Sequence record: NC_048748.1 | Length of the DNA: 64,000 bases | From: Escherichia phage vB_EcoS_HdH2 | Reading direction: 5' to 3' (one strand) | Shown here: in pieces, positions 10,911-46,619 of the stretch | Layout: every line of letters begins with the position of its first letter | Numbering within the stretch: the stretch's first letter is position 1 | Program-made: the position numbers and the translations under genes | Notes under the pieces: generated by a model | What the model saw: only the letters and a program-made list of their open reading frames with translations | The model's database searches: none | What the model was told of the DNA's origin: nothing

Positions 10911-11612
10911 TCAAATTTTCATTTTTTCGATCATAGCCGCAACACAATAGCTCTCAACTAAGGCATCGAATGCTGGGTCGTGCTTAACCGGATATATCCC
11001 ATAACGAATGGTGTCCATCTTCTCCATTTTAGCTATTGCCCAGCTAATACCTTCGGTCTCTAGAGCCTTATAACTGTATCCAGCTTGCATCCAGAGATTA
11101 CGAAGAGATCGAACATTACCCAAATTCCAGAATTTCCACGGAACTACCTCTTCATTGGTTCCAGCATGGAACGTGTTTGCAGAGTAGATAGTCATATCAA
11201 ACTCTGGGCCATTGCCATAATACAAAGCATTTTCTCCTAGAGCCAACTCCATAATATTTTGAGCCATAGAGAAGGCAGCATAGTTTGAGCCTAATTTATT
11301 AGTGCAATGATGTTTACCATTTTGGAAGGCAATCAGTTTTGGATTACGTTCCTTCATAGCTTCCATAATGTGAATAGCAGACGGGCTATTTTTAGCTTGA
11401 TCCATCCAGAATGCTAGAGTAGATGCTGTAACTTTGGCACCAGAATTAAGCTGATCCTGCACATCCAAAGTAACAAATACTAAGTCAGGGTCTTTATCAA
11501 TCCCATGCATAGCCACAAAAGCGAAAGAAGGCATTGCGATATGAGTAGTACCACAATCTCCTGGGGTTCCTAGAGATTCAATATCTAACATACCAAATGG
11601 TTTTACTTTCAT
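10911..11612 (-). CDS. DEDDh-family 3'-5' exonuclease (DnaQ/DexA-like)
   Basis: Exo I motif LDIESLG near the N-terminus and H-x4-D motif (KHDPAFDAL) near the C-terminus. Confidence 0.55.
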   Translation of the reverse strand: MKVKPFGMLDIESLGTPGDCGTTHIAMPSFAFVAMHGIDKDPDLVFVTLDVQDQLNSGAKVTASTLAFWMDQAKNSPSAIHIMEAMKERNPKLIAFQNGKHHCTNKLGSNYAAFSMAQNIMELALGENALYYGNGPEFDMTIYSANTFHAGTNEEVVPWKFWNLGNVRSLRNLWMQAGYSYKALETEGISWAIAKMEKMDTIRYGIYPVKHDPAFDALVESYCVAAMIEKMKI

Positions 11613-11919: not shown

Positions 11920-12135
11920 TTACTTGCCCAGCAGTTTAAGGATATTTTCCATAATAGTTTGGGCAGATTTTTCACTCTTAGTAGTTTCGGCCAGTTTCAG
12001 GGCAAGTTCTTCCTGTTGTTTCTGAATATCAGCAGCAATTTTCTGATCAGCCTCAATACGAGCTTGAAGTTCATCAGTAATAGTAGTAAAGGAAGCAACG
12101 ATTTCAGTAACGGAACGTGGTTTCTTAGAGAACAT
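11920..12135 (-). CDS. hypothetical protein (71 aa), flanked by two copies of a GGGGC-TTTCG-CCCC hairpin
   Basis: ORF between hairpins at about 11893-11912 and 12174-12192. Confidence 0.45.
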   Translation of the reverse strand: MFSKKPRSVTEIVASFTTITDELQARIEADQKIAADIQKQQEELALKLAETTKSEKSAQTIMENILKLLGK

Positions 12136-12194: not shown

Positions 12195-12710
12195 TTACTT
12201 CACTTTACGTTTGCGAGCTGGTTTAGCAGATTTACGAGCAGAATCGCCTGTGAATTTAATACCCACACCGTAACACAGAGCACGAACATTATCCTTGCTA
12301 TATTCTACGCCAAAGATATTTGGCTTAACAGAACCAAACTGGCCACGAGTATCACGCAGTACATCTGCCGTTGGTTTGCGCTTCTGGTTAACTGCTTTTT
12401 CGTAATCTTTCATGGCCATGCCATTACGAGAGAACAATTCAGCTCCAGCATTGAAACTCAGTGTTACTGGAACAGATTTGTGACCATAACCCTGTACATA
12501 GGTCACAAGGCGGGCTACAGAACGAGTAGCATTCTTAGCCTTCGGCTTTTGACGAATCGGAGCCGGACGATTCAGTGCCTGTGCAGCTTGAGCATCAGTA
12601 GGATGCTTGCGCAGGTGGCGTTCCAGACGAGCTTTGCGGTTAGCCTCAGTCTGCGGGAAAGTTTTAACTGTAGTAGCTGCTTGAGTTTTTGCGTTTTTCT
12701 GCTTAGCCAT
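12195..12710 (-). CDS. hypothetical basic protein (171 aa), possibly nucleic-acid binding
   Basis: Lys/Arg-rich termini; behind the early promoter at 12736-12790. Confidence 0.5.
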   Translation of the reverse strand: MAKQKNAKTQAATTVKTFPQTEANRKARLERHLRKHPTDAQAAQALNRPAPIRQKPKAKNATRSVARLVTYVQGYGHKSVPVTLSFNAGAELFSRNGMAMKDYEKAVNQKRKPTADVLRDTRGQFGSVKPNIFGVEYSKDNVRALCYGVGIKFTGDSARKSAKPARKRKVK

Positions 12711-12785
12711 TATTTGTTTTCCTTTTTGTTTATCAATTTATGAAGTATATTATACGAGAATTTGAAGCGTTTAGCAAATGAATTT

Positions 12786-13235
12786 TTAATTTATTAACTG
12801 TAAGCTTCTTTTAATTTCAGACCTTACCTGCATCAAAAGAACTCCTAAAGTATTATCCCCGATGCCTCGGCAAACACCCCAATATGTATCTCCCCAGGTA
12901 TTTCCTTCAATCAAAGTTGCATTTTCTGTTGCTAACAGTTTGTCTCTCAAATCAGGGATTGCAAACTTTAACCGTAAAAGCTCTAGCATTACATCATCTT
13001 TTACCTTATCCCAGTCAGGGCGTATAATTAATTTACGTCCTCTACGTTTAGCAACTCCTGCATTTAGGGAACGTAATATATGAGCTACATCATCTTTTTG
13101 GTCGGATTTCATAGCCTGAAAAGCATGTTCTACAGTATCAGCATGCCATATTTCATTTAGGTATTCGAAAGTAATTGGTGATAAATAAAAGTTAGATAAG
13201 AAACTATAAGCACCTTTAAATTCAGTAATCTTCAT
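12786..13235 (-). CDS. NADAR / YbiA-like (DUF1768) family protein
   Basis: Family-typical motifs FLSNFY, EHAFQA, NTWGD...WG, LG.LLM. Confidence 0.6.
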   Translation of the reverse strand: MKITEFKGAYSFLSNFYLSPITFEYLNEIWHADTVEHAFQAMKSDQKDDVAHILRSLNAGVAKRRGRKLIIRPDWDKVKDDVMLELLRLKFAIPDLRDKLLATENATLIEGNTWGDTYWGVCRGIGDNTLGVLLMQVRSEIKRSLQLIN

Positions 13236-13516
13236 TTTTTACGCCCCGCATCTTTGGCCTCTTCGGCTGTATAGATATACTGATAAGCCCCTTTGGAGTA
13301 AGCTGGAGCAGTACACATTTTCTTACGCTCAATCTCTTCTTGAGCTTTTCTTTCGCGTTCAGCTAATTCTTCATCCAGATAAACTAAACGTTGTTCTGGA
13401 GGAGGTGGAAGACGTGTTTCTGGCTCACCAATATTAGCCTTTCTTATTTGACGAGGTGATTGTGCACGTTTTCTCAACGGTTTAAATCCTAATGAATTTG
13501 AGTTATAAATTCGCAT
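13232..13516 (-). CDS. hypothetical protein (94 aa)
   Basis: ATG behind AGGAGG RBS and the early promoter at 13530-13590. Confidence 0.5.
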   Translation of the reverse strand: MRIYNSNSLGFKPLRKRAQSPRQIRKANIGEPETRLPPPPEQRLVYLDEELAERERKAQEEIERKKMCTAPAYSKGAYQYIYTAEEAKDAGRKK

Positions 13517-13592
13517 AAAGCCCTCCTCACTTTCAATACGAATATTATACTAAATTAGAGGGCTTTAAGCAAGAAGATTTTTAATTTATTTA

Positions 13593-14069
13593 TCACATCT
13601 CGGCCATTTCAGCTTCAGTAATAACTGTGTTACACAATGCATCTACAGCTTCATTACCACTAATACCAGAATGTCCTTTAACCTTAATAAAGGTAGGATT
13701 AGTATTATGAAAGTTGATATACTGCTGTGTTAATTTAAATGCTTCCTGCCAAAGTTCTAGATTAAGAGGAACTTCACCATCTGCTTTCTTCCAGCCTTTC
13801 CTTTGCCAAGAAAACATCCAACTTTCCATACCATTTTTGCAATAAGCAGAATCAGTATAGATAACAATTGGTCTATTATCTTTTTTAACTGACCAACGTA
13901 GAGCCTCTACAATAGCCGTGAGTTCCATCTCATTATTTGTAGTTTTAGGACTATATCCAGATTTAGAACCTAAACGATCGTCGTTATCATCATAGACAAT
14001 AAAGCCCCAAGCACCTGGACCTGGGTTAGACTTACAAGCACCATCTGTGTAAATGTGGAAAACCGACAT
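13593..14069 (-). CDS. rnhA: ribonuclease H (RNase HI-like)
   Basis: RNase H motifs: YTDGAC, ELTAIVEAL, IYTDSAYC, KGHSGISGNE. Confidence 0.7.
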   Translation of the reverse strand: MSVFHIYTDGACKSNPGPGAWGFIVYDDNDDRLGSKSGYSPKTTNNEMELTAIVEALRWSVKKDNRPIVIYTDSAYCKNGMESWMFSWQRKGWKKADGEVPLNLELWQEAFKLTQQYINFHNTNPTFIKVKGHSGISGNEAVDALCNTVITEAEMAEM

Positions 14070-14338
14070 TATTTGCTCCAGTCAATTTCAAGCCAAAAAC
14101 CTTCACGCTGCTCATACTTAGCTTCTACGACATAGCCTAGTTTAGTGAGTCGTTGCATAACGCTGTTTCTGGCGTTTTCTGAATATTCAGTTAACCCCTG
14201 AATATGGCAGTTAAATTCTTTTTCTTTGATTGCTTTATCAATCTCTACGGCAATAAGTGACTCTAGATTAAGTACTTCCTGTTTAATAACAGCAATAGTA
14301 TTTTGTTTTGCTTCTAAAGCAGATAAAAGAATAGACAT
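14069..14338 (-). CDS. hypothetical protein (89 aa)
   Basis: ORF with start/stop overlap to neighbours in the same operon. Confidence 0.45.
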   Translation of the reverse strand: MSILLSALEAKQNTIAVIKQEVLNLESLIAVEIDKAIKEKEFNCHIQGLTEYSENARNSVMQRLTKLGYVVEAKYEQREGFWLEIDWSK

Positions 14339-14592
14339 TAGTTTTCGCCTTCTATAATTACCCTAGTCGCTGGAGGAATTGGCGGCATAGGAGGAATACA
14401 TGGATGACCTCTTTGTGCATCATTTGGTACTCTTGGCGGTTCAGGTCTAATTGCCTTTAATTCCTTTTCTAGGAATTGTTCTAACGCCCGTTCTACAAAA
14501 TGATCGAAAGGTAAGTGATAATACTGAGACAGAGCTAAGAACCTACGTTCTTGACTTTGTGTTAAATAAACTTTCTTTTTAAAGAGTCCCAT
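14338..14592 (-). CDS. hypothetical protein (about 84 aa)
   Basis: Start moved to the internal ATG (MGLFKKK) behind GGAGACAACT RBS because the upstream codons overlap the promoter at about 14598-14650. Confidence 0.45.
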   Translation of the reverse strand: MGLFKKKVYLTQSQERRFLALSQYYHLPFDHFVERALEQFLEKELKAIRPEPPRVPNDAQRGHPCIPPMPPIPPATRVIIEGEN

Positions 14593-14684
14593 AGTTGTCT
14601 CCGATTTATAAAATATATTATATCTAAATTTCACTCAGTAAGCAAATGAAATTTAAATATAATAGCCCCGAAGGGCTATTTGAG

Positions 14685-15524
14685 TTAGGAAGACATTTTA
14701 GCTTTAAGAGCTGGGTGAGGATCATACCCTTCCAAATGGAATGACCAAGCTGCCGTATTATTTTCTAGCAAGTCGTAAAGATCTACAAACTCTGGCATTA
14801 CTAGAGTTGGCAGAGGGCGTGGCTTGCGTTTTACCTGTTCTTCTACCTGTTCCATGTGGTCATTATAGATATGAGTATCCCCGCCACTAAAGATAAGATA
14901 ACGAGGTTTTAATCCTGTCAGTTTTGCTAATATATGCGTTAATAAAGCATAACTAGCAATATTGAAAGGTAAACCGAGGAAACAATCCACAGAGCGTTGT
15001 GTCCATTTAAGATCTAGGTATCCATCGTTACTTACATAGCACTGGAAGCCGTAGTGACAAGGTGGTAATGCCATTTTATCAAGTTCAGCTACGTTCCACG
15101 CAGAAACTAGATGTCTGCGGCCATGAGGATTATTCTTGAGTCCTTCAATAAGTTCTAGAATCTGATCTCGCCCACCAAAGTTACGCCACTGTTTACCATA
15201 TACTGGTCCTAGATTACCCTTATCATACCCCATACTTATAGCTTGGTCTTCATAATTTGGAGTCCAGATGGTCCACTGTCCTTCGTCACGACCAAATGTG
15301 AATACACGTAGATCATGAAGATTTGTGGAACCAGACAAGAACCATAAGAGTTCTCCTACTACGGATTTCCAAGCTAGACGTTTGGTAGTGACGGCAGGAA
15401 ACCCATCACGTAGATCGAATTTAGCGTAAGAATCAAAAATTGAAACTGTGCCTGTTCCTGTACGGTCATTACGGGGTTCACCTAGTAAAATTACATCTGT
15501 CAAAATTTTTAAGTATTGTTGCAT
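14685..15524 (-). CDS. thyA: thymidylate synthase
   Basis: Active-site motif ALPPCHYGFQCYV and overall ThyA-like sequence; terminator hairpin ATAGCCC-CGAA-GGGCTAT at about 14662-14680. Confidence 0.85.
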   Translation of the reverse strand: MQQYLKILTDVILLGEPRNDRTGTGTVSIFDSYAKFDLRDGFPAVTTKRLAWKSVVGELLWFLSGSTNLHDLRVFTFGRDEGQWTIWTPNYEDQAISMGYDKGNLGPVYGKQWRNFGGRDQILELIEGLKNNPHGRRHLVSAWNVAELDKMALPPCHYGFQCYVSNDGYLDLKWTQRSVDCFLGLPFNIASYALLTHILAKLTGLKPRYLIFSGGDTHIYNDHMEQVEEQVKRKPRPLPTLVMPEFVDLYDLLENNTAAWSFHLEGYDPHPALKAKMSS

Positions 15525-21107: not shown

Positions 21108-23079
21108 ATGAATCGCAATGAAGAACTAAAGTATAAAGAAATGCAGGCGTTAATTAGAAACTGCAAAGAGATTATCGAAGGGTCAGCAGATGAAGAGCTG
21201 CTGTTTAATAATGCCAATAAACCCTCAGAACGTTTCCCTACACAAAGGGATATGCTTGCAGGTGAATTGAGTAAGTATCTGATTCTAGAAGAAATGCCAA
21301 TTCAGATTCGAAATGCTCATATGATTGGGGATATTCATTTCCATGATGCTGATTATGCTGCATTAGGCATGACTAACTGTTGCCTGGTAGCTCTGGAAGA
21401 TATGTTGAAGAATGGTATGAAGGTTGGTAATGCTGAAATTAGCACTCCAAACTCTATCACTACTGCGGCGGCTATCACTGCTCAGATTATCACTCAAGTT
21501 AGCTCCCATCAGTATGGTGGTACTTCTGTAGACCGATTAGATGAAGTATTGGCTCCTTATGTTCGTAAGTCTTATGATAAGAATCATGCGTTTGCAAAAC
21601 GTTGGACTAAGGATGAAGCCAAAGCATCCGTAATGGCTACGGAGATGACTGAAAAAGAAGTCTATGATGCTTGTCAAGGTTTAGAATATGAAATCAATAC
21701 CATGTTCAACTCTAATGGTCAGAGCCCATTTATTACCTTTGGTTTTGGTCTAGGGACTTCTTGGGAAGCTCGTCTAGTACAGAAAGCAATACTGAAAGTA
21801 CGTATGGATGGTTTAGGTATCAATAAACGTACAGCTATCTTTCCGAAACTGGTGTTTGTTCTGCGTGATGGCGTAAATATGAAGCCAGGAGATGTTAATT
21901 ATGACATCAAGAAGTTAGCTATGAAATGTACTGCTGAACGTATGTATCCCGACTATATCAGCTACGATAAGGTTGTGGAAGTTACTGGTGACTATAAAGT
22001 TTCTATGGGCTGCCGTTCATTCCTAGCTGCTACAGAAGATGGTGAAACTGCAGGTCGTAATAACTTAGGTGTTGTTTCTGTAAACTTGCCTAGAATTGCT
22101 ATCGAAGCTGAAGGGAATATTGATCTATTCTTTGATTTGCTTGAGCTACGTGTGGATACAGCGTTAAAAGCATTGGAGTGGAGAGTTGATCGCTTAAAAT
22201 ACATTCAAGCTAAAGCCGCGCCCATCCTCTATATGTCAGGAGCCTTTGGGTTACGCTTGGGGCCTGATGAATATGTATTCGATCATTTCTATAACCGTGC
22301 TTTTATGCAGGTCTCGGACATTGTGTCTACATCTTTGCCAAACATGAACTGTAGCATTTCATGGCAACCAATATACCCTAGAGATACAGAAGCACCGTTC
22401 TGTATCTCTAGGGTATATTGGTTGCCATGAAATGCTACAGTTCATGTTTGGCAAAGATGTAGACACAATGTCCGAGACCTGCATAAAGTTTGTTCAGCGT
22501 GTATTGCAGTACATGCGAGATAGAGTCGATCAGAAGAAGGAAGAAACTAAGTTAGGTTATAGCCTGTATGCTACACCATCAGAATCCCTATGTGACCGTT
22601 TTTGTCGTCTAGACCGGGAATATTTCCCGGAGCATGAAGATATTCTGTCCAAAGGATACTACACTAACTCTCACCACCTTGATGTGGAACGTAAAGTTGC
22701 TCCTAACGTGAAATTTGATTATGAATCTAACTTTACTCCTATTGCTTCTGGTGGGTGTATTTCCTATGTAGAACTACCGGATATGAAACGATTCCCAGAT
22801 GCACTGGAATGGGTTATTAATTATGCTGCTAGTAAAGTTCATTACTTCGGTATTAATACTCCAGTGGATTCTTGTGGTAAATGTGGATTCTTAGGTGAAA
22901 CAATAGCATCCGAAGATGGGTTTAAGTGCCCTATCTGTGGTAATCATGACCCAGAAACTCTTGAAGTAACTCGTCGAGTTTGTGGATATCTTGGAAATCC
23001 AGGTGCTCGTCCATTTAACCCTGGCAAACAGCACGAGGTTATGGGCAGGGTGAAACACCAGGATATTCGAGCTAAATAA
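21108..23079 (+). pseudogene. nrdD: anaerobic ribonucleoside-triphosphate reductase gene, reading frame interrupted at 22391-22487 by an inverted duplication
   Basis: ORF 21108-22430 carries the NrdD N-terminal and core regions; ORF 22432-23079 carries the glycyl-radical motif RVCGYLG and a CxxC/CPICG zinc ribbon; deleting 22391-22487 (97 nt) joins the two in frame into about 624 codons. Confidence 0.75.
22302..22487. repeat. perfect inverted repeat: two 89-bp arms (22302-22390 and 22399-22487) around an 8-nt loop AGCACCGT
   Basis: Right arm is the exact reverse complement of the left arm as read base by base; left arm is in-frame nrdD coding sequence, right arm introduces a TGA. Confidence 0.9.
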
Positions 23080-23737: not shown

Positions 23738-23927
23738 GGGTTTAAACTCCGTTTTGGAAAACGCATTAATGCAGCACTGGGAAACTGGCTATAAGGATGG
23801 TGTTGAATCCTGCGCTACTATGCTAGAAGTTATTGCTAATACCTTAATGGAGAAAGACAATAAAGAATTAGCTGAGCTATTAGACAGTATTGGGCAAAAC
23901 TTCAGAGAACAGGTGAAAAATGCGTAG
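23706..23927 (+). CDS. hypothetical protein (73 aa)
   Basis: ORF in operon; no recognisable domain. Confidence 0.4.
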   Translation: MAFSKPMLPDKGLNSVLENALMQHWETGYKDGVESCATMLEVIANTLMEKDNKELAELLDSIGQNFREQVKNA

Positions 23928-24744
23928 ATTAATTATTATTAGCGGTGCAGGTTTGAGTGTTGAAAGTGGCGTACGAGCTTTTCGTACTGATACTGCTAGT
24001 GGTAAAGCACTGTGGGATGATTATGATCTAGAAGAAGTATGTAATATTCATGCCTTTCGTGGTAATTTTTATCATAAAACCCATATGTTTTACAACAAGC
24101 GTCGTGAAGAGTTAGAAACTGTTGAACCTAATCTTGCACACTTGCGTATTGGTGAATGGTATAAGAAATATCCGGGTCAAGTAGTAAATTTGACTACTAA
24201 CGTTGATGACCTTATTGAGCGTGCTGGTGTTCCGCATAGTGACATTTTGCATATTCATGGATATTTAAAAGAGGTTGTTGTAGCTGACAGCTACAATAGT
24301 AGCAATAAACGAGTTATTGATGTTGGGTATAGCTCTATTGACCCAGATGATTATAAATGGGCTAAACCTAATGTAATCTTCTTTGGTGAGCATGCTCCAG
24401 CGTACGCAGAAATGTACAATATTTTTGATGGTATTACCAGTCAAGATATGATCGTTGTGGTTGGTTGCTCTAACCAAGTAATTAACTTCTACTGGGAATT
24501 ATTTCCTGTTCTTAATTTGACTGCTGCCAAATTAATGGTAGTTAACTACTATGATAGTGCCCTAGCGACAGAGCCAGGCTATCAAGGTATGACTCGTAGT
24601 GAGATGTACCAGCTGGAAGAACGCGGTATCCCTTACTGGAGTAAAGGGGCTGTAGATGCCTTCAGTGACCCTGATTTTATTGCTCGTGTAGAAGCTCATC
24701 TAGAGGGTAGACCTTATATGCCGGGGAAACAAATATGTCCATAA
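23920..24744 (+). CDS. SIR2/sirtuin-family protein lacking the zinc-ribbon cysteines
   Basis: Sirtuin motifs IIISGAGLSVESGVRAFR, NVDDLIERAG, HIHGYL; no CxxC pairs. Confidence 0.55.
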   Translation: MRRLIIISGAGLSVESGVRAFRTDTASGKALWDDYDLEEVCNIHAFRGNFYHKTHMFYNKRREELETVEPNLAHLRIGEWYKKYPGQVVNLTTNVDDLIERAGVPHSDILHIHGYLKEVVVADSYNSSNKRVIDVGYSSIDPDDYKWAKPNVIFFGEHAPAYAEMYNIFDGITSQDMIVVVGCSNQVINFYWELFPVLNLTAAKLMVVNYYDSALATEPGYQGMTRSEMYQLEERGIPYWSKGAVDAFSDPDFIARVEAHLEGRPYMPGKQICP

Positions 24745-24917
24745 TTAAATCTGTGTATACACACCCTGATGATATATTTGTATGGGCGGACGGTAGTTGG
24801 TGCTATCGCTGTGAGTTGTGGGAAATGGACTATAAATCCGATGACTATGGTGTTATATATGTGGATACGGTTGAGTATGATACGTTCTTAGAAAGGAACA
24901 AAAATGGAAATAAGTAA
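24735..24917 (+). CDS. hypothetical protein (60 aa)
   Basis: Short ORF overlapping neighbours. Confidence 0.35.
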   Translation: MSIIKSVYTHPDDIFVWADGSWCYRCELWEMDYKSDDYGVIYVDTVEYDTFLERNKNGNK

Positions 24918-25410
24918 TACTCCAATTATTTTTCTAGACATTGATGGGGTGCTCAATTCGAGCATCTCCCACCATCATGCACCTGATGATGAAAAGATTT
25001 TCTTTGGAAGTGACTGGGTTTTCAAACCGCTTCTCAAGGCTTTTCAGGACTTTATTCGTCCTTCTCCGATAATGATTGTTGGAGTATCCTCATGGTTCTC
25101 TGTCAGGAATGAGATGGAGAACGTTCAGATTATGACCGGATTAGGTCTTATCGATCGTTTTCTTGGTACAACGGATTTTACTGGTGGTGGGCTATCTAGG
25201 GGTAATTCTGTTCTTCGCTTCGTTGAAAAGCATAAGCTCAAACATTGGTGTGTGCTGGATGATGCCGGTGCTATGATGTATCAGTATCCAACGGTTATAG
25301 TCAATGGTAGAACAGGAATAAATCTTCAGGATTTAAAAGCTGTTAGCTATATGCTAGAATTTAGCCCAGATCTTGAAATGTGTAAATCCTTACAACAATT
25401 TAAGGTGTAA
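24904..25410 (+). CDS. HAD-superfamily hydrolase-like protein
   Basis: HAD motif I FLDIDGVLN near the N-terminus and acidic motif VLDDAG. Confidence 0.45.
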   Translation: MEISNTPIIFLDIDGVLNSSISHHHAPDDEKIFFGSDWVFKPLLKAFQDFIRPSPIMIVGVSSWFSVRNEMENVQIMTGLGLIDRFLGTTDFTGGGLSRGNSVLRFVEKHKLKHWCVLDDAGAMMYQYPTVIVNGRTGINLQDLKAVSYMLEFSPDLEMCKSLQQFKV

Positions 25411-44800: not shown

Positions 44801-46619
44801 GACACTAAAATTTAGTAACGTTATGTCTTACGGTAAGGACATCGTAATTCATTTCGATAAGAATCCAGTTACTCAACTAATTGGTGGCAATGGGCTAGGG
44901 AAATCCACCATCGCTACGGTTATCGAGGAATTGTTTTATAACAAGAACTCACGTGGTATTAAGAAAGATGCTCTGTTCTCTTGGAATGCCCCTAAGAAAG
45001 AATACGATATGCACGCTTACTTTTCAAAAGATGATGATGAGTATGAGCTGCATAAAGTAGTTAAGTCAACTGCTAAAGTAACGTTGATTAAGAATGGGGA
45101 AGATATTAGTGGACATACGGCAACCCAAACATACAAGATAATTGAAGAGATTATGGGTGGTGACTTTCAAACATTCACCAAACTGATTTATCAATCAGTG
45201 GGTTCCAACCTAGATTTTCTAAAAGCAACAGATGCAACACGTAAGGCTTTTCTTGTTAACTTGTTCAATCAAGAGCAATACAAAGAAATGTCGGAAACTG
45301 TTAAGGCTGACCGTAAAGAAATAGCAAATACCTTAAATAATTTGCAGGGCCAGATGGCTGTAATTACGAAAATCCTTAATGGGAAAAATAATCTCGGGAG
45401 TTTACAGGAACCGGTTGAAGTTCCTGAGTTTGATGAAGAACCATTAGCACAAGAACTTACTGAATCGAAAATTAAGGCGGCATTAGCCAAGTCTCAAGAG
45501 GCTAATATTACTAAATTGCGTAATTTGGACAAAGCTGTACAAGTTGCCGAACAATCTTTCGAGCCTTTCAAAAATTTGCCCGCGCCCACTGACCAAAACG
45601 AAGAGATCTCAAGTGTTACGCGTGACCTAACGATTGTGACCTCACGTGCGGGCGAAGTTAAGAAACGTTATCAGAAGTTCAAGCAAGAAGCTTCAAATAC
45701 TGAATGCCCTACTTGTGGTACTCATCTGGATACAACTGCTGCTCAAAAAGCAATGGATATGGCTAGAATAGAATATGATCCTCTGTTCAAAGAGAAGCAA
45801 TCTCTTGAAGCTAAGCTAGAACAGTTGAAGAAAGAACAACTTGAGTACGTTGCGTATACTAGAGCAAAGGATGCTTTGGATAAAGCGGTGGTAGCTAGAG
45901 ACGAGTTCAAAAATTCAATGAGTGATGCTTCTTTTGAAGAACTCAATGTGCAAATCCTACAGGTGCAAATCCGACAATTAGAACAGGCAATCGCTGATGG
46001 ACGTTCTAAGGTTGCAATTGCCAAAGAGCATAATGCAAATGTCGAATTAGCTAATGCAAAATATAAAGCGAAAATAGAACAGATTGAGAAAGCTGAAGCA
46101 GAAATGTCTGAGATTACTTCCAAACTGAATGGAGTATCAGAAGCTGTAGCTGATCTTGATATTCTAATTGCTGCTTTGAAAAATCTGGTGGGATATAAAT
46201 TAGAGCATAGTGTGAAAGTATTTGAAGAACTAATTAATAAATACCTTTCCATTATGACTGGAGGTAAATTCGCACTTGGATTTGAACTTGATGAAACAAA
46301 ATTACAAGTAGTAATCTTCAATGATGGAAACCGTACCAGTATGGAGAACTGCTCTACTGGTCAGCAAAGTCGAATTAATCTAGCAACATTGTTAGCGATT
46401 CGTATGCTGTTAACATCTATTAGTAAAGTTAATATTAATCTTCTATTCCTTGATGAAGTAATTAGCTTTATTGATACGAAAGGACTTGATACTCTCGTTG
46501 AACTATTAAATGAGGAAGAAAGTCTAAATTCTATCATTGTTTCTCATGGGCATACGCATCCATTAGCTCATAAGATTACTGTCAAAAAAGATGCAGAAGG
46601 ATTTTCCTACTTAGAATAA
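44781..46619 (+). CDS. Rad50/SbcC-like ATPase with zinc-hook coiled coil
   Basis: Walker A GGNGLGKST, CPTCG hook inside a long coiled coil, signature STGQQSR, Walker B LLFLDEV; start at ATG (MSKITIK) overlapping the Mre11-like gene. Confidence 0.75.
   Translation: MSKITIKTLKFSNVMSYGKDIVIHFDKNPVTQLIGGNGLGKSTIATVIEELFYNKNSRGIKKDALFSWNAPKKEYDMHAYFSKDDDEYELHKVVKSTAKVTLIKNGEDISGHTATQTYKIIEEIMGGDFQTFTKLIYQSVGSNLDFLKATDATRKAFLVNLFNQEQYKEMSETVKADRKEIANTLNNLQGQMAVITKILNGKNNLGSLQEPVEVPEFDEEPLAQELTESKIKAALAKSQEANITKLRNLDKAVQVAEQSFEPFKNLPAPTDQNEEISSVTRDLTIVTSRAGEVKKRYQKFKQEASNTECPTCGTHLDTTAAQKAMDMARIEYDPLFKEKQSLEAKLEQLKKEQLEYVAYTRAKDALDKAVVARDEFKNSMSDASFEELNVQILQVQIRQLEQAIADGRSKVAIAKEHNANVELANAKYKAKIEQIEKAEAEMSEITSKLNGVSEAVADLDILIAALKNLVGYKLEHSVKVFEELINKYLSIMTGGKFALGFELDETKLQVVIFNDGNRTSMENCSTGQQSRINLATLLAIRMLLTSISKVNINLLFLDEVISFIDTKGLDTLVELLNEEESLNSIIVSHGHTHPLAHKITVKKDAEGFSYLE

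Follow-up and report, generated by a model that had tools for sequence, protein, structure and literature searches.

An adfN-type NADAR gene in the early region of the T5-like Escherichia phage vB_EcoS_HdH2, with a predicted role against DarT1

The NADAR gene and its insertion site

We examined a gene of the NADAR superfamily in Escherichia phage vB_EcoS_HdH2 (NC_048748.1), within a 64,000-nucleotide stretch that we call the window and to which all coordinates refer. The gene, of the adfN type, is an open reading frame (ORF) running from ATG to TAA at 12786..13235 on the minus strand, and encodes 149 amino acids plus the stop codon. Its product is a predicted guanine-ADP-ribose DNA glycohydrolase and, judged by sequence, the orthologue of AdfN-Bas32, the NADAR of Escherichia phage Bas32.

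An initial annotation of this DNA had delimited exactly the same intact ORF, with no strand given, and had assigned it to the NADAR/YbiA family from a handful of motifs. All of these are found in the translation (FLSNFY at residues 12-17, EHAFQA at 36-41, NTWGD at 112-116 and WG at 119-120), and the assignment is borne out by a profile search: the protein matches the Pfam family NADAR (PF08719, also DUF1768) with 77.5 bits (E 1.9e-21; the gathering cut-off is 35.1), in an alignment that spans profile positions 9-163 of 163. The protein thus belongs to the NADAR superfamily. It also matches PHROG 1017 (E 6e-45), a family labelled as being of 'unknown function'. Among proteins of solved structure, only two gave significant sequence matches, E. 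coli YbiA (2b3w, E 1.5e-14) and the NADAR of Phytophthora nicotianae (PnNADAR; 8bau, E 1e-6). A hidden Markov model (HMM) built from 46 homologues and run against the six-frame ORFs recovered this gene as the single NADAR of the 64-kb window (E 2.9e-66); neither this search nor tblastn with four NADAR queries found a second one in the window.

The window comes from a T5-like phage of the family Demerecviridae, subfamily Markadamsvirinae, genus Tequintavirus. Both the 3.2 kb surrounding the gene and the window's first 25 kb are 94-98% identical at the nucleotide level to T5-like phages, including vB_EcoS_EASG3/HASG4, vB_EcoD-Elw, SP15 and OSYSP. The features described next all lie on the minus strand, as does the NADAR gene, and are given in the direction of transcription. 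Thymidylate synthase (thy, 14685-15524) is followed by two small ORFs of 89 and 98 amino acids with no Pfam match (14069-14634), by the RNase H gene rnh (13593-14069), and by a likely promoter (13544..13572; -35 TTGCTT, 17-nt spacer, -10 TATAAT). This promoter precedes a 94-amino-acid ORF of unknown function (13232..13516), which matches PHROG 4593 (E 1.8e-54) and is the homologue of T5.090, with 91% identity. The NADAR gene comes next, then a homologue of the T5 promoter P-H207, found in a promoter scan (12749..12777; -35 TTGCTA, 17-nt spacer, -10 TATAAT), and the gene that it drives, which encodes a DUF7022 protein homologous to T5.089 (12195-12710). Small ORFs separate the latter from a gene for an Rv2179c-like exonuclease (10911-11612); one of them, of 71 amino acids (11920-12135) and with no Pfam match, lies between the homologues of T5.088 and T5.089.

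In T5 itself, the order is rnh, promoter, T5.090, promoter P-H207 (annotated as P-H 207 at 45985-46059) and T5.089. Alignment of the two genomes shows that T5 is without the NADAR gene at exactly this junction, and that in the window, Bas32 and EASG3 the insertion falls precisely at the boundary of the T5.090 homologue and P-H207. P-H207 marks its downstream edge: identity to T5 restarts at the first base past the stop codon of the NADAR gene and continues across the hexamers of this promoter, which begin a few bases further on, into the DUF7022 gene. On the upstream side, where the NADAR gene joins, the T5.090 homologue departs from T5 over roughly its final 20 codons. The TGA stop codon of the 94-amino-acid ORF overlaps the NADAR start codon as ATGA, which suggests translational coupling of the two genes.

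The promoter at 13572..13544 was missed by a simple sigma-70 consensus scan, since its -35 hexamer matches the consensus at 3 of 6 positions and falls below the threshold. It was recovered by alignment to T5, where a 100% identical promoter is annotated ahead of T5.090 (NC_005859, 46337-46411), and it presumably has the function annotated there. We found no terminator-like site between the NADAR stop codon and P-H207. Given the conserved upstream promoter and the clear run up to P-H207, the NADAR gene is most simply read as the distal gene of a two-gene unit with the 94-amino-acid ORF.

The initial annotation had also placed the gene in an early operon. The location agrees with synteny, as homologues of the T5 early genes rnh, thy, frd and nrdAB are present and the T5 promoter is conserved; the timing itself would be carried over from T5. 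Transcription in T5 falls into three temporal classes, all served by the host sigma-70 RNA polymerase, and the promoters that flank this locus, P15A (37.8 kb) and Ppol (71 kb), behave as early (PMC7472727).

The small ORFs of this region were noted in passing. Those of 89, 98 and 71 amino acids are all missing from T5, where only a promoter gap of 134 bp separates rnh and thy. Bas32 has an annotated coding sequence of the same position and size as the 71-amino-acid ORF and none annotated between rnh and thy. The T5-like early region has several accessory slots in addition to the one occupied by the NADAR gene.

Predicted fold and active site

The AlphaFold2 model of the protein, built from the alignment of 46 homologues, has a mean predicted local distance difference test (pLDDT) score of 97.3 and a predicted template modelling (pTM) score of 0.91. 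Comparison with the PDB using Foldseek gave only two matches at E<=0.001, YbiA (2b3w, TM 0.83) and the ADP-ribose-bound PnNADAR (8bau, TM 0.78), and the modelled structure is a YbiA-like alpha-helical core fold. The match to the DarT1-associated NADAR of G. lovleyi (8bat) was poor (E 0.85, TM 0.45).

The active site of NADAR enzymes has been defined by a co-crystal of PnNADAR with ADP-ribose, together with mutagenesis of DarG1 from E. coli C7 (EcC7) (Schuller et al., 2023; PMC11543638). In PnNADAR, E43 and E125 coordinate the distal ribose, while the pyrophosphate is contacted directly by K50, R79, W89, R93 and W133 and through a water molecule by D130 (PMC11543638). A further residue, K75 (the equivalent of K115 in EcC7 DarG1), can be dispensed with in vitro, yet rescue in vivo depends on it (PMC11543638). 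We mapped these residues by counting along the 8bau sequence and then aligning motifs to the window protein. The PnNADAR residues E43, K50, K75, R79, W89, E125, D130 and W133 correspond in this alignment to E36, K43, K63, R67, W75, E110, D116 and W119, and K79 is also among the residues aligned to the PnNADAR active site. By homology, E36 and E110 would hold the distal ribose, and K43, R67, W75, D116 and W119 would hold the pyrophosphate, while K63 would be the counterpart of the DarG1 lysine that is required for rescue in cells and not for catalysis.

Conservation was assessed in the same 46 homologues, which are 47-96% identical to the window protein. Nine residues are invariant (E36, Q40, K43, K63, E110, W114, D116, W119 and G120), W75 is present in 45 of the 46, and position 67 is occupied by Arg in 34, Lys in 7 and Gln in 5. 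The catalytic residues, whose presence was left to be verified when the gene was first annotated, can be matched throughout: by motif alignment, all those known to matter for guanine-ADP-ribose hydrolysis are present. E36 and K43 form an E-x6-K motif within TVEHAFQAMK, which is conserved too in YbiA and in T4 gp30.3. The counterparts of this pair are E43/K50 in PnNADAR, E88/K95 in EcC7 DarG1 and E36/K43 in AdfN-T4, where they are the two residues that were mutated.

E110 lies within LIEGNTWGD, is found in 46/46 homologues and aligns with the Glu of the YbiA motif VEHTEND. At the position of PnNADAR E125, the DarG1/BC4488 group has Asp and the T4-like phage NADARs have His (PMC11543638). The Glu here places the window protein in the YbiA-type subfamily, in the sense of de Souza and Aravind as used by Schuller et al. 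(2023).

Orthology to AdfN-Bas32 and the case for counter-defence

At the DNA level, the NADAR gene has a counterpart with 98.2% identity in Escherichia phage IrisVonRoten (MZ501075.1), which is Bas32 according to its bas32_xxxx locus tags and the BASEL paper. The two proteins are identical at 145 of 149 residues (97%) in an ungapped alignment of the window protein with bas32_0066 (QXV80247.1). Bas32 has one NADAR-like place: tblastn gave 471 places in 470 records, and the extra place comes from a Vibrio phage. Beyond their equal length, the two genes occupy the same slot in phages of the same genus, Tequintavirus: each overlaps the upstream ORF as ATGA, is followed by the same promoter and stands in the gene order rnh, T5.090 homologue, NADAR, DUF7022. 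They differ by four substitutions, I53V, I70T, I71L and P73S (window residue first).

This orthologue has been studied in vivo. Johannesman et al. (2025, Nat Commun 16:1598; PMC11825919) reported identical NADARs, which they named AdfN-Bas32, in two phages described as 'Markadamsvirinae closely related to T5', Bas32 and Bas33. When expressed from a plasmid, AdfN-Bas32 neutralises DarT1, a guanine-specific DNA ADP-ribosyltransferase, in uninfected E. coli, and when supplied in trans it allows the DarTG1-sensitive phages RB69, T5 and Bas25 to plaque at full titre on DarTG1 hosts (PMC11825919). It gives no protection against DarTG2, which modifies thymidine (PMC11825919). The suggestion in the initial annotation that the gene might counter DarT-type defence therefore finds support in the data on AdfN-Bas32, which neutralised DarT1 and restored growth on E. 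coli carrying DarTG1 (PMC11825919). As to the target, that suggestion has to be narrowed, in that it stands for the guanine-modifying DarT1 of DarTG1 systems and not for DarTG2. The anti-DarT1 role of a NADAR of this kind was already known, having been published in February 2025, and the window gene is an orthologue of the published one. A GenBank record from 2025 for Salmonella phage WP85 likewise labels the orthologue 'antitoxin-like enzyme, NADAR superfamily'.

Copies of the 450-bp gene with 95-99% identity were found in 94 records, exclusively from T5-like phages, and its 3.2-kb neighbourhood matches 445 records; it is thus an accessory gene of T5-like phages. No NADAR was found in T5 when all of its unique DNA (nt 1-112000) was searched by tblastn with four queries (best E 0.66) and with the HMM from 46 homologues (best E 1.5). 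T5 was described as 'strongly restricted by DarTG1' and was rescued by AdfN-Bas32 in trans (PMC11825919). The natural contrast with this near-isogenic phage, which lacks the gene, is sensitive to DarTG1 and recovers when given AdfN-Bas32, fits the function assigned. A wider set of homologues contains 796 proteins, and its members from outside the T5-like phages are at most 60% identical; most of these are unnamed metagenomic proteins, and some are annotated as 'ribA/ribD-fused uncharacterized protein'. Johannesman et al. place AdfN-Bas32 near two archaeal NADARs (PMC11825919).

A different NADAR, 60% identical to that of the window, is encoded at 2489-2938 of Salmonella phage vB_SenS_UTK0009 (Epseptimavirus, NC_111487.1). 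It occupies a neighbouring slot, in the order rnh, NADAR, T5.090 homologue, and does not follow the T5.090 homologue, which suggests that a NADAR gene was inserted a second time, independently, into the same array of early genes in T5-like phages. Two short records (2-3.5 kb) under the name 'Listeria phage' also contain the T5-like NADAR gene (97% identity); these contigs are probably mislabelled. The labels given to the orthologues in public records are inconsistent and include hypothetical protein, swarming motility protein YbiA, GTP cyclohydrolase II, DUF1768 protein, NADAR family protein and, in one record, antitoxin-like enzyme. Small ORFs nearby bear implausible labels as well, for example 'tail length tape-measure protein' and 'metallopeptidase'.

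We consider it very likely that the gene product is an antitoxin-like NADAR enzyme, an orphan of the same type as AdfN-Bas32, and that it reverses DarT1 marks on phage DNA. DarT1 of a host DarTG1 system attaches ADP-ribose to N2 of guanine in the phage DNA and so blocks replication; in the mechanism that we propose, the NADAR enzyme would cut the N-glycosidic bond between ribose and guanine, restoring normal DNA and allowing the phage to replicate. The gene would be transcribed by the host sigma-70 RNA polymerase together with genes for replication and nucleotide metabolism, and we propose that, through its insertion in the early region, the enzyme would be in the cell when phage DNA replication starts.

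These results allow a confident annotation of the gene as adfN, a counter-defence gene against DarTG1, and the annotation extends to the ~94 near-identical copies in records of T5-like Escherichia and Salmonella phages, most of which now bear the labels 'hypothetical', 'swarming motility protein' or 'GTP cyclohydrolase II'. They also predict which T5-like phages should escape hosts carrying DarTG1, which bears on the choice of phages for therapy or biocontrol. Relative to Johannesman et al. (2025), only the exact anatomy of the insertion and a testable hint concerning a lysine, discussed below, are new.

Several points weigh against this reading. Since YbiA hydrolyses guanine-ADP-ribose (G-ADPr) in vitro but does not rescue cells from DarT1 toxicity (PMC11125620), and is otherwise known as an N-glycosidase of the riboflavin pathway (cited in PMC11543638), membership of the family is by itself weak evidence of an anti-DarT1 function. 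The function of the window allele is taken over from the 97%-identical protein, and the tests of that protein used plasmid expression, so that its necessity in the native phage and its direct biochemistry are presumed; the text consulted of PMC11825919 reports neither a deletion in Bas32 nor an assay of a purified enzyme of the Bas32 clade. Early expression of the gene, for its part, is deduced from synteny with T5 and from the conserved promoters. Lastly, three of the four residues that distinguish the window protein from AdfN-Bas32, namely I53, I71 and P73, are private to it among eight T5-like orthologues, and P73 adjoins D74 and W75.

These private residues raise the question of whether the window allele is inactive or decaying. 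Decay does occur in the clade, as the T5-like protein P0002 (117 amino acids) has lost residues 51-82, including K63, R67 and W75, and the three residues in question are unlike those of all seven other T5-like orthologues. However, the ORF is full-length, every invariant column of the family is intact and the AlphaFold2 model is uniformly confident. All four substituted columns are variable in the wider family, where I53 (28 of 46 homologues) and P73 (19 of 46) are the commonest residues and I71, a conservative change, occurs in 6 of 46. The ORF is also intact in all eight T5-like alleles compared, and synonymous codon differences among them are about as frequent as non-synonymous ones. We regard a loss of function in the window allele as extremely improbable. 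Pseudogenisation of the allele was considered and rejected on the column statistics.

The natural target of the enzyme can be questioned more broadly. DarT1 might not be the main one, and the enzyme might chiefly reverse other ADP-ribosylations that T5-like phages encounter in Salmonella or E. coli, for instance ADP-ribose attached to guanine or cytidine, in DNA or RNA, by pierisin-, ScARP- or YarT-like toxins or by undescribed defence transferases. The YbiA-type glutamate E110 is compatible with broader substrates: enzymes belonging to the NADAR family and to the YbiA family, unlike DarG1s and the T4 NADAR, were in one study able to take cytidine-ADPr off DNA and RNA as well, and all the NADAR families assayed remove G-ADPr from RNA (PMC12945103). 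Johannesman et al. themselves argue that an enzymatic eraser works whichever toxin set the mark (PMC11825919). On the other side, the sole recorded in vivo phenotype of the clade is against DarT1 and DarTG1 (PMC11825919), and we hold this alternative to be unlikely. It overlaps with a role in reversing DarT1 marks, which would then be one facet of the activity.

Comparison with YbiA, DarG1 and T4 gp30.3

YbiA is the closest characterised relative of the window protein (~40% identity over 136 residues, E 6e-17; TM 0.83 to 2b3w). Both have a minimal NADAR core with no N-terminal extension, the E-x6-K motif and the YbiA-type Glu; the window protein starts directly at the core, with YbiA residue 26 aligned to its residue 10. 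YbiA differs in being chromosomal, beside dinG and ybiB, and in having Ala at the column of phage K63. This resemblance, the best in both sequence and structure, could be read together with the riboflavin role of YbiA and with orthologue labels such as 'swarming motility protein YbiA', 'GTP cyclohydrolase II' and 'riboflavin biosynthesis protein' to mean that the phage protein is a metabolic N-glycosidase that hydrolyses intermediates of the riboflavin pathway, or a similar ribosylamine, and so tunes host metabolism. Yet the database names are automatic transfers, no riboflavin gene lies near the NADAR gene, and its presence or absence among otherwise collinear phages is as expected of an accessory gene for counter-defence. 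With the direct anti-DarT1 phenotype of the 97%-identical protein (PMC11825919) also to be explained, a metabolic role is very unlikely.

The chemistry that we propose for the phage protein is that of DarG1, which hydrolyses guanine-N2-ADP-ribose on DNA and neutralises DarT1 without binding it. E88, K95 and the in vivo-essential K115 of DarG1 from E. coli C7 correspond to E36, K43 and K63 of the phage protein. Membership of the DarG1 (BC4488 NADAR) group was considered and rejected: there is no adjacent darT, the N-terminal beta1-beta2-alpha1 extension is absent, the third catalytic residue (D171 in EcC7 DarG1) is Glu and not Asp, and 8bat is a poor structural match. No DarT or ADP-ribosyltransferase (ART) domain was found among the neighbours of the NADAR gene (RNase H, the 94-amino-acid ORF, DUF7022, the exonuclease and thymidylate synthase). 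The gene is a phage-encoded orphan, with no cognate DarT toxin gene beside it.

Another orphan NADAR encoded by a phage, AdfN-T4 (T4 gp30.3), acts against DarTG1 by stripping DNA of ADP-ribose, and its specificity is for the guanine mark. The window protein was not assigned to this T4-like clade, as tblastn with gp30.3 gave no match on the window at E<=10, identity in the alignment is 20-24%, and Glu is kept where the clade has His. The two also behave differently, in that AdfN-T4 works fully only in T-even infection and does not rescue cells from DarT1 toxicity on its own, whereas AdfN-Bas32 does so alone (PMC11825919). AdfN-T4 and AdfN-Bas32 look like independent acquisitions, in agreement with the view of Johannesman et al. 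that phages acquired NADARs several times (PMC11825919). Removal of G-ADPr from DNA in vitro has been reported for AdfN-T4, YbiA, DarG1 and other NADARs (PMC11125620 and PMC12945103 among the sources).

These comparisons point to one residue that may merit attention. The column of K63 holds Lys in DarG1 (K115), PnNADAR (K75), AdfN-Bas32, the window protein and bas61_0107, a sequence of the AdfN-Bas60 type taken from Bas61/EmilieFrey; it holds Ala in E. coli YbiA and Gln in AdfN-T4, although the T4 alignment behind this comparison is weak. DarG1, AdfN-Bas32 and AdfN-Bas60 rescue cells from DarT1 toxicity alone, and YbiA and AdfN-T4 do not (PMC11825919, PMC11125620, PMC11543638). From this five-point correlation, we tentatively put forward, as a possibility that is more doubtful than not, that this single lysine (K63/K115/K75) might decide whether a NADAR protects cells from DarT1 by itself. 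If true, K63 would be a sequence marker that, across the many uncharacterised NADARs of phages and bacteria, parts anti-DarT1 NADARs from housekeeping or context-dependent ones.

The phi92-like phage EmilieFrey/Bas61 (MZ501063.1; 6976-8542 and 27185-27736) carries, besides its NADAR bas61_0107, the adjacent genes bas61_0068 and bas61_0069, annotated as a putative macrodomain protein and a putative phosphoribosyltransferase. They could represent a further counter-defence pair related to ADP-ribose or nicotinamide adenine dinucleotide (NAD).

Other genes of note lie in the window on the plus strand. A Sir2-family protein is encoded at 23920-24744 (E 1e-23), and a protein with a HAD_SAK_2 'Swiss Army Knife RNA repair' HAD domain at 24904-25410 (E 4e-20). 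These genes, the homologues of T5.102 and T5.105, are ~11 kb from the NADAR gene and are of NAD/ADP-ribose-related or RNA-repair type. Upstream of them, two adjacent ORFs, at 21108-22430 (440 amino acids) and 22432-23079 (215 amino acids), together encode the anaerobic ribonucleotide reductase NrdD, whose division may reflect a frameshift, an error of sequencing or a true split. The two cover positions 2-354 and 367-562 of the Pfam family NRDD plus the glycyl-radical domain, and correspond to what in T5 is a single nrdD product of 574 amino acids.

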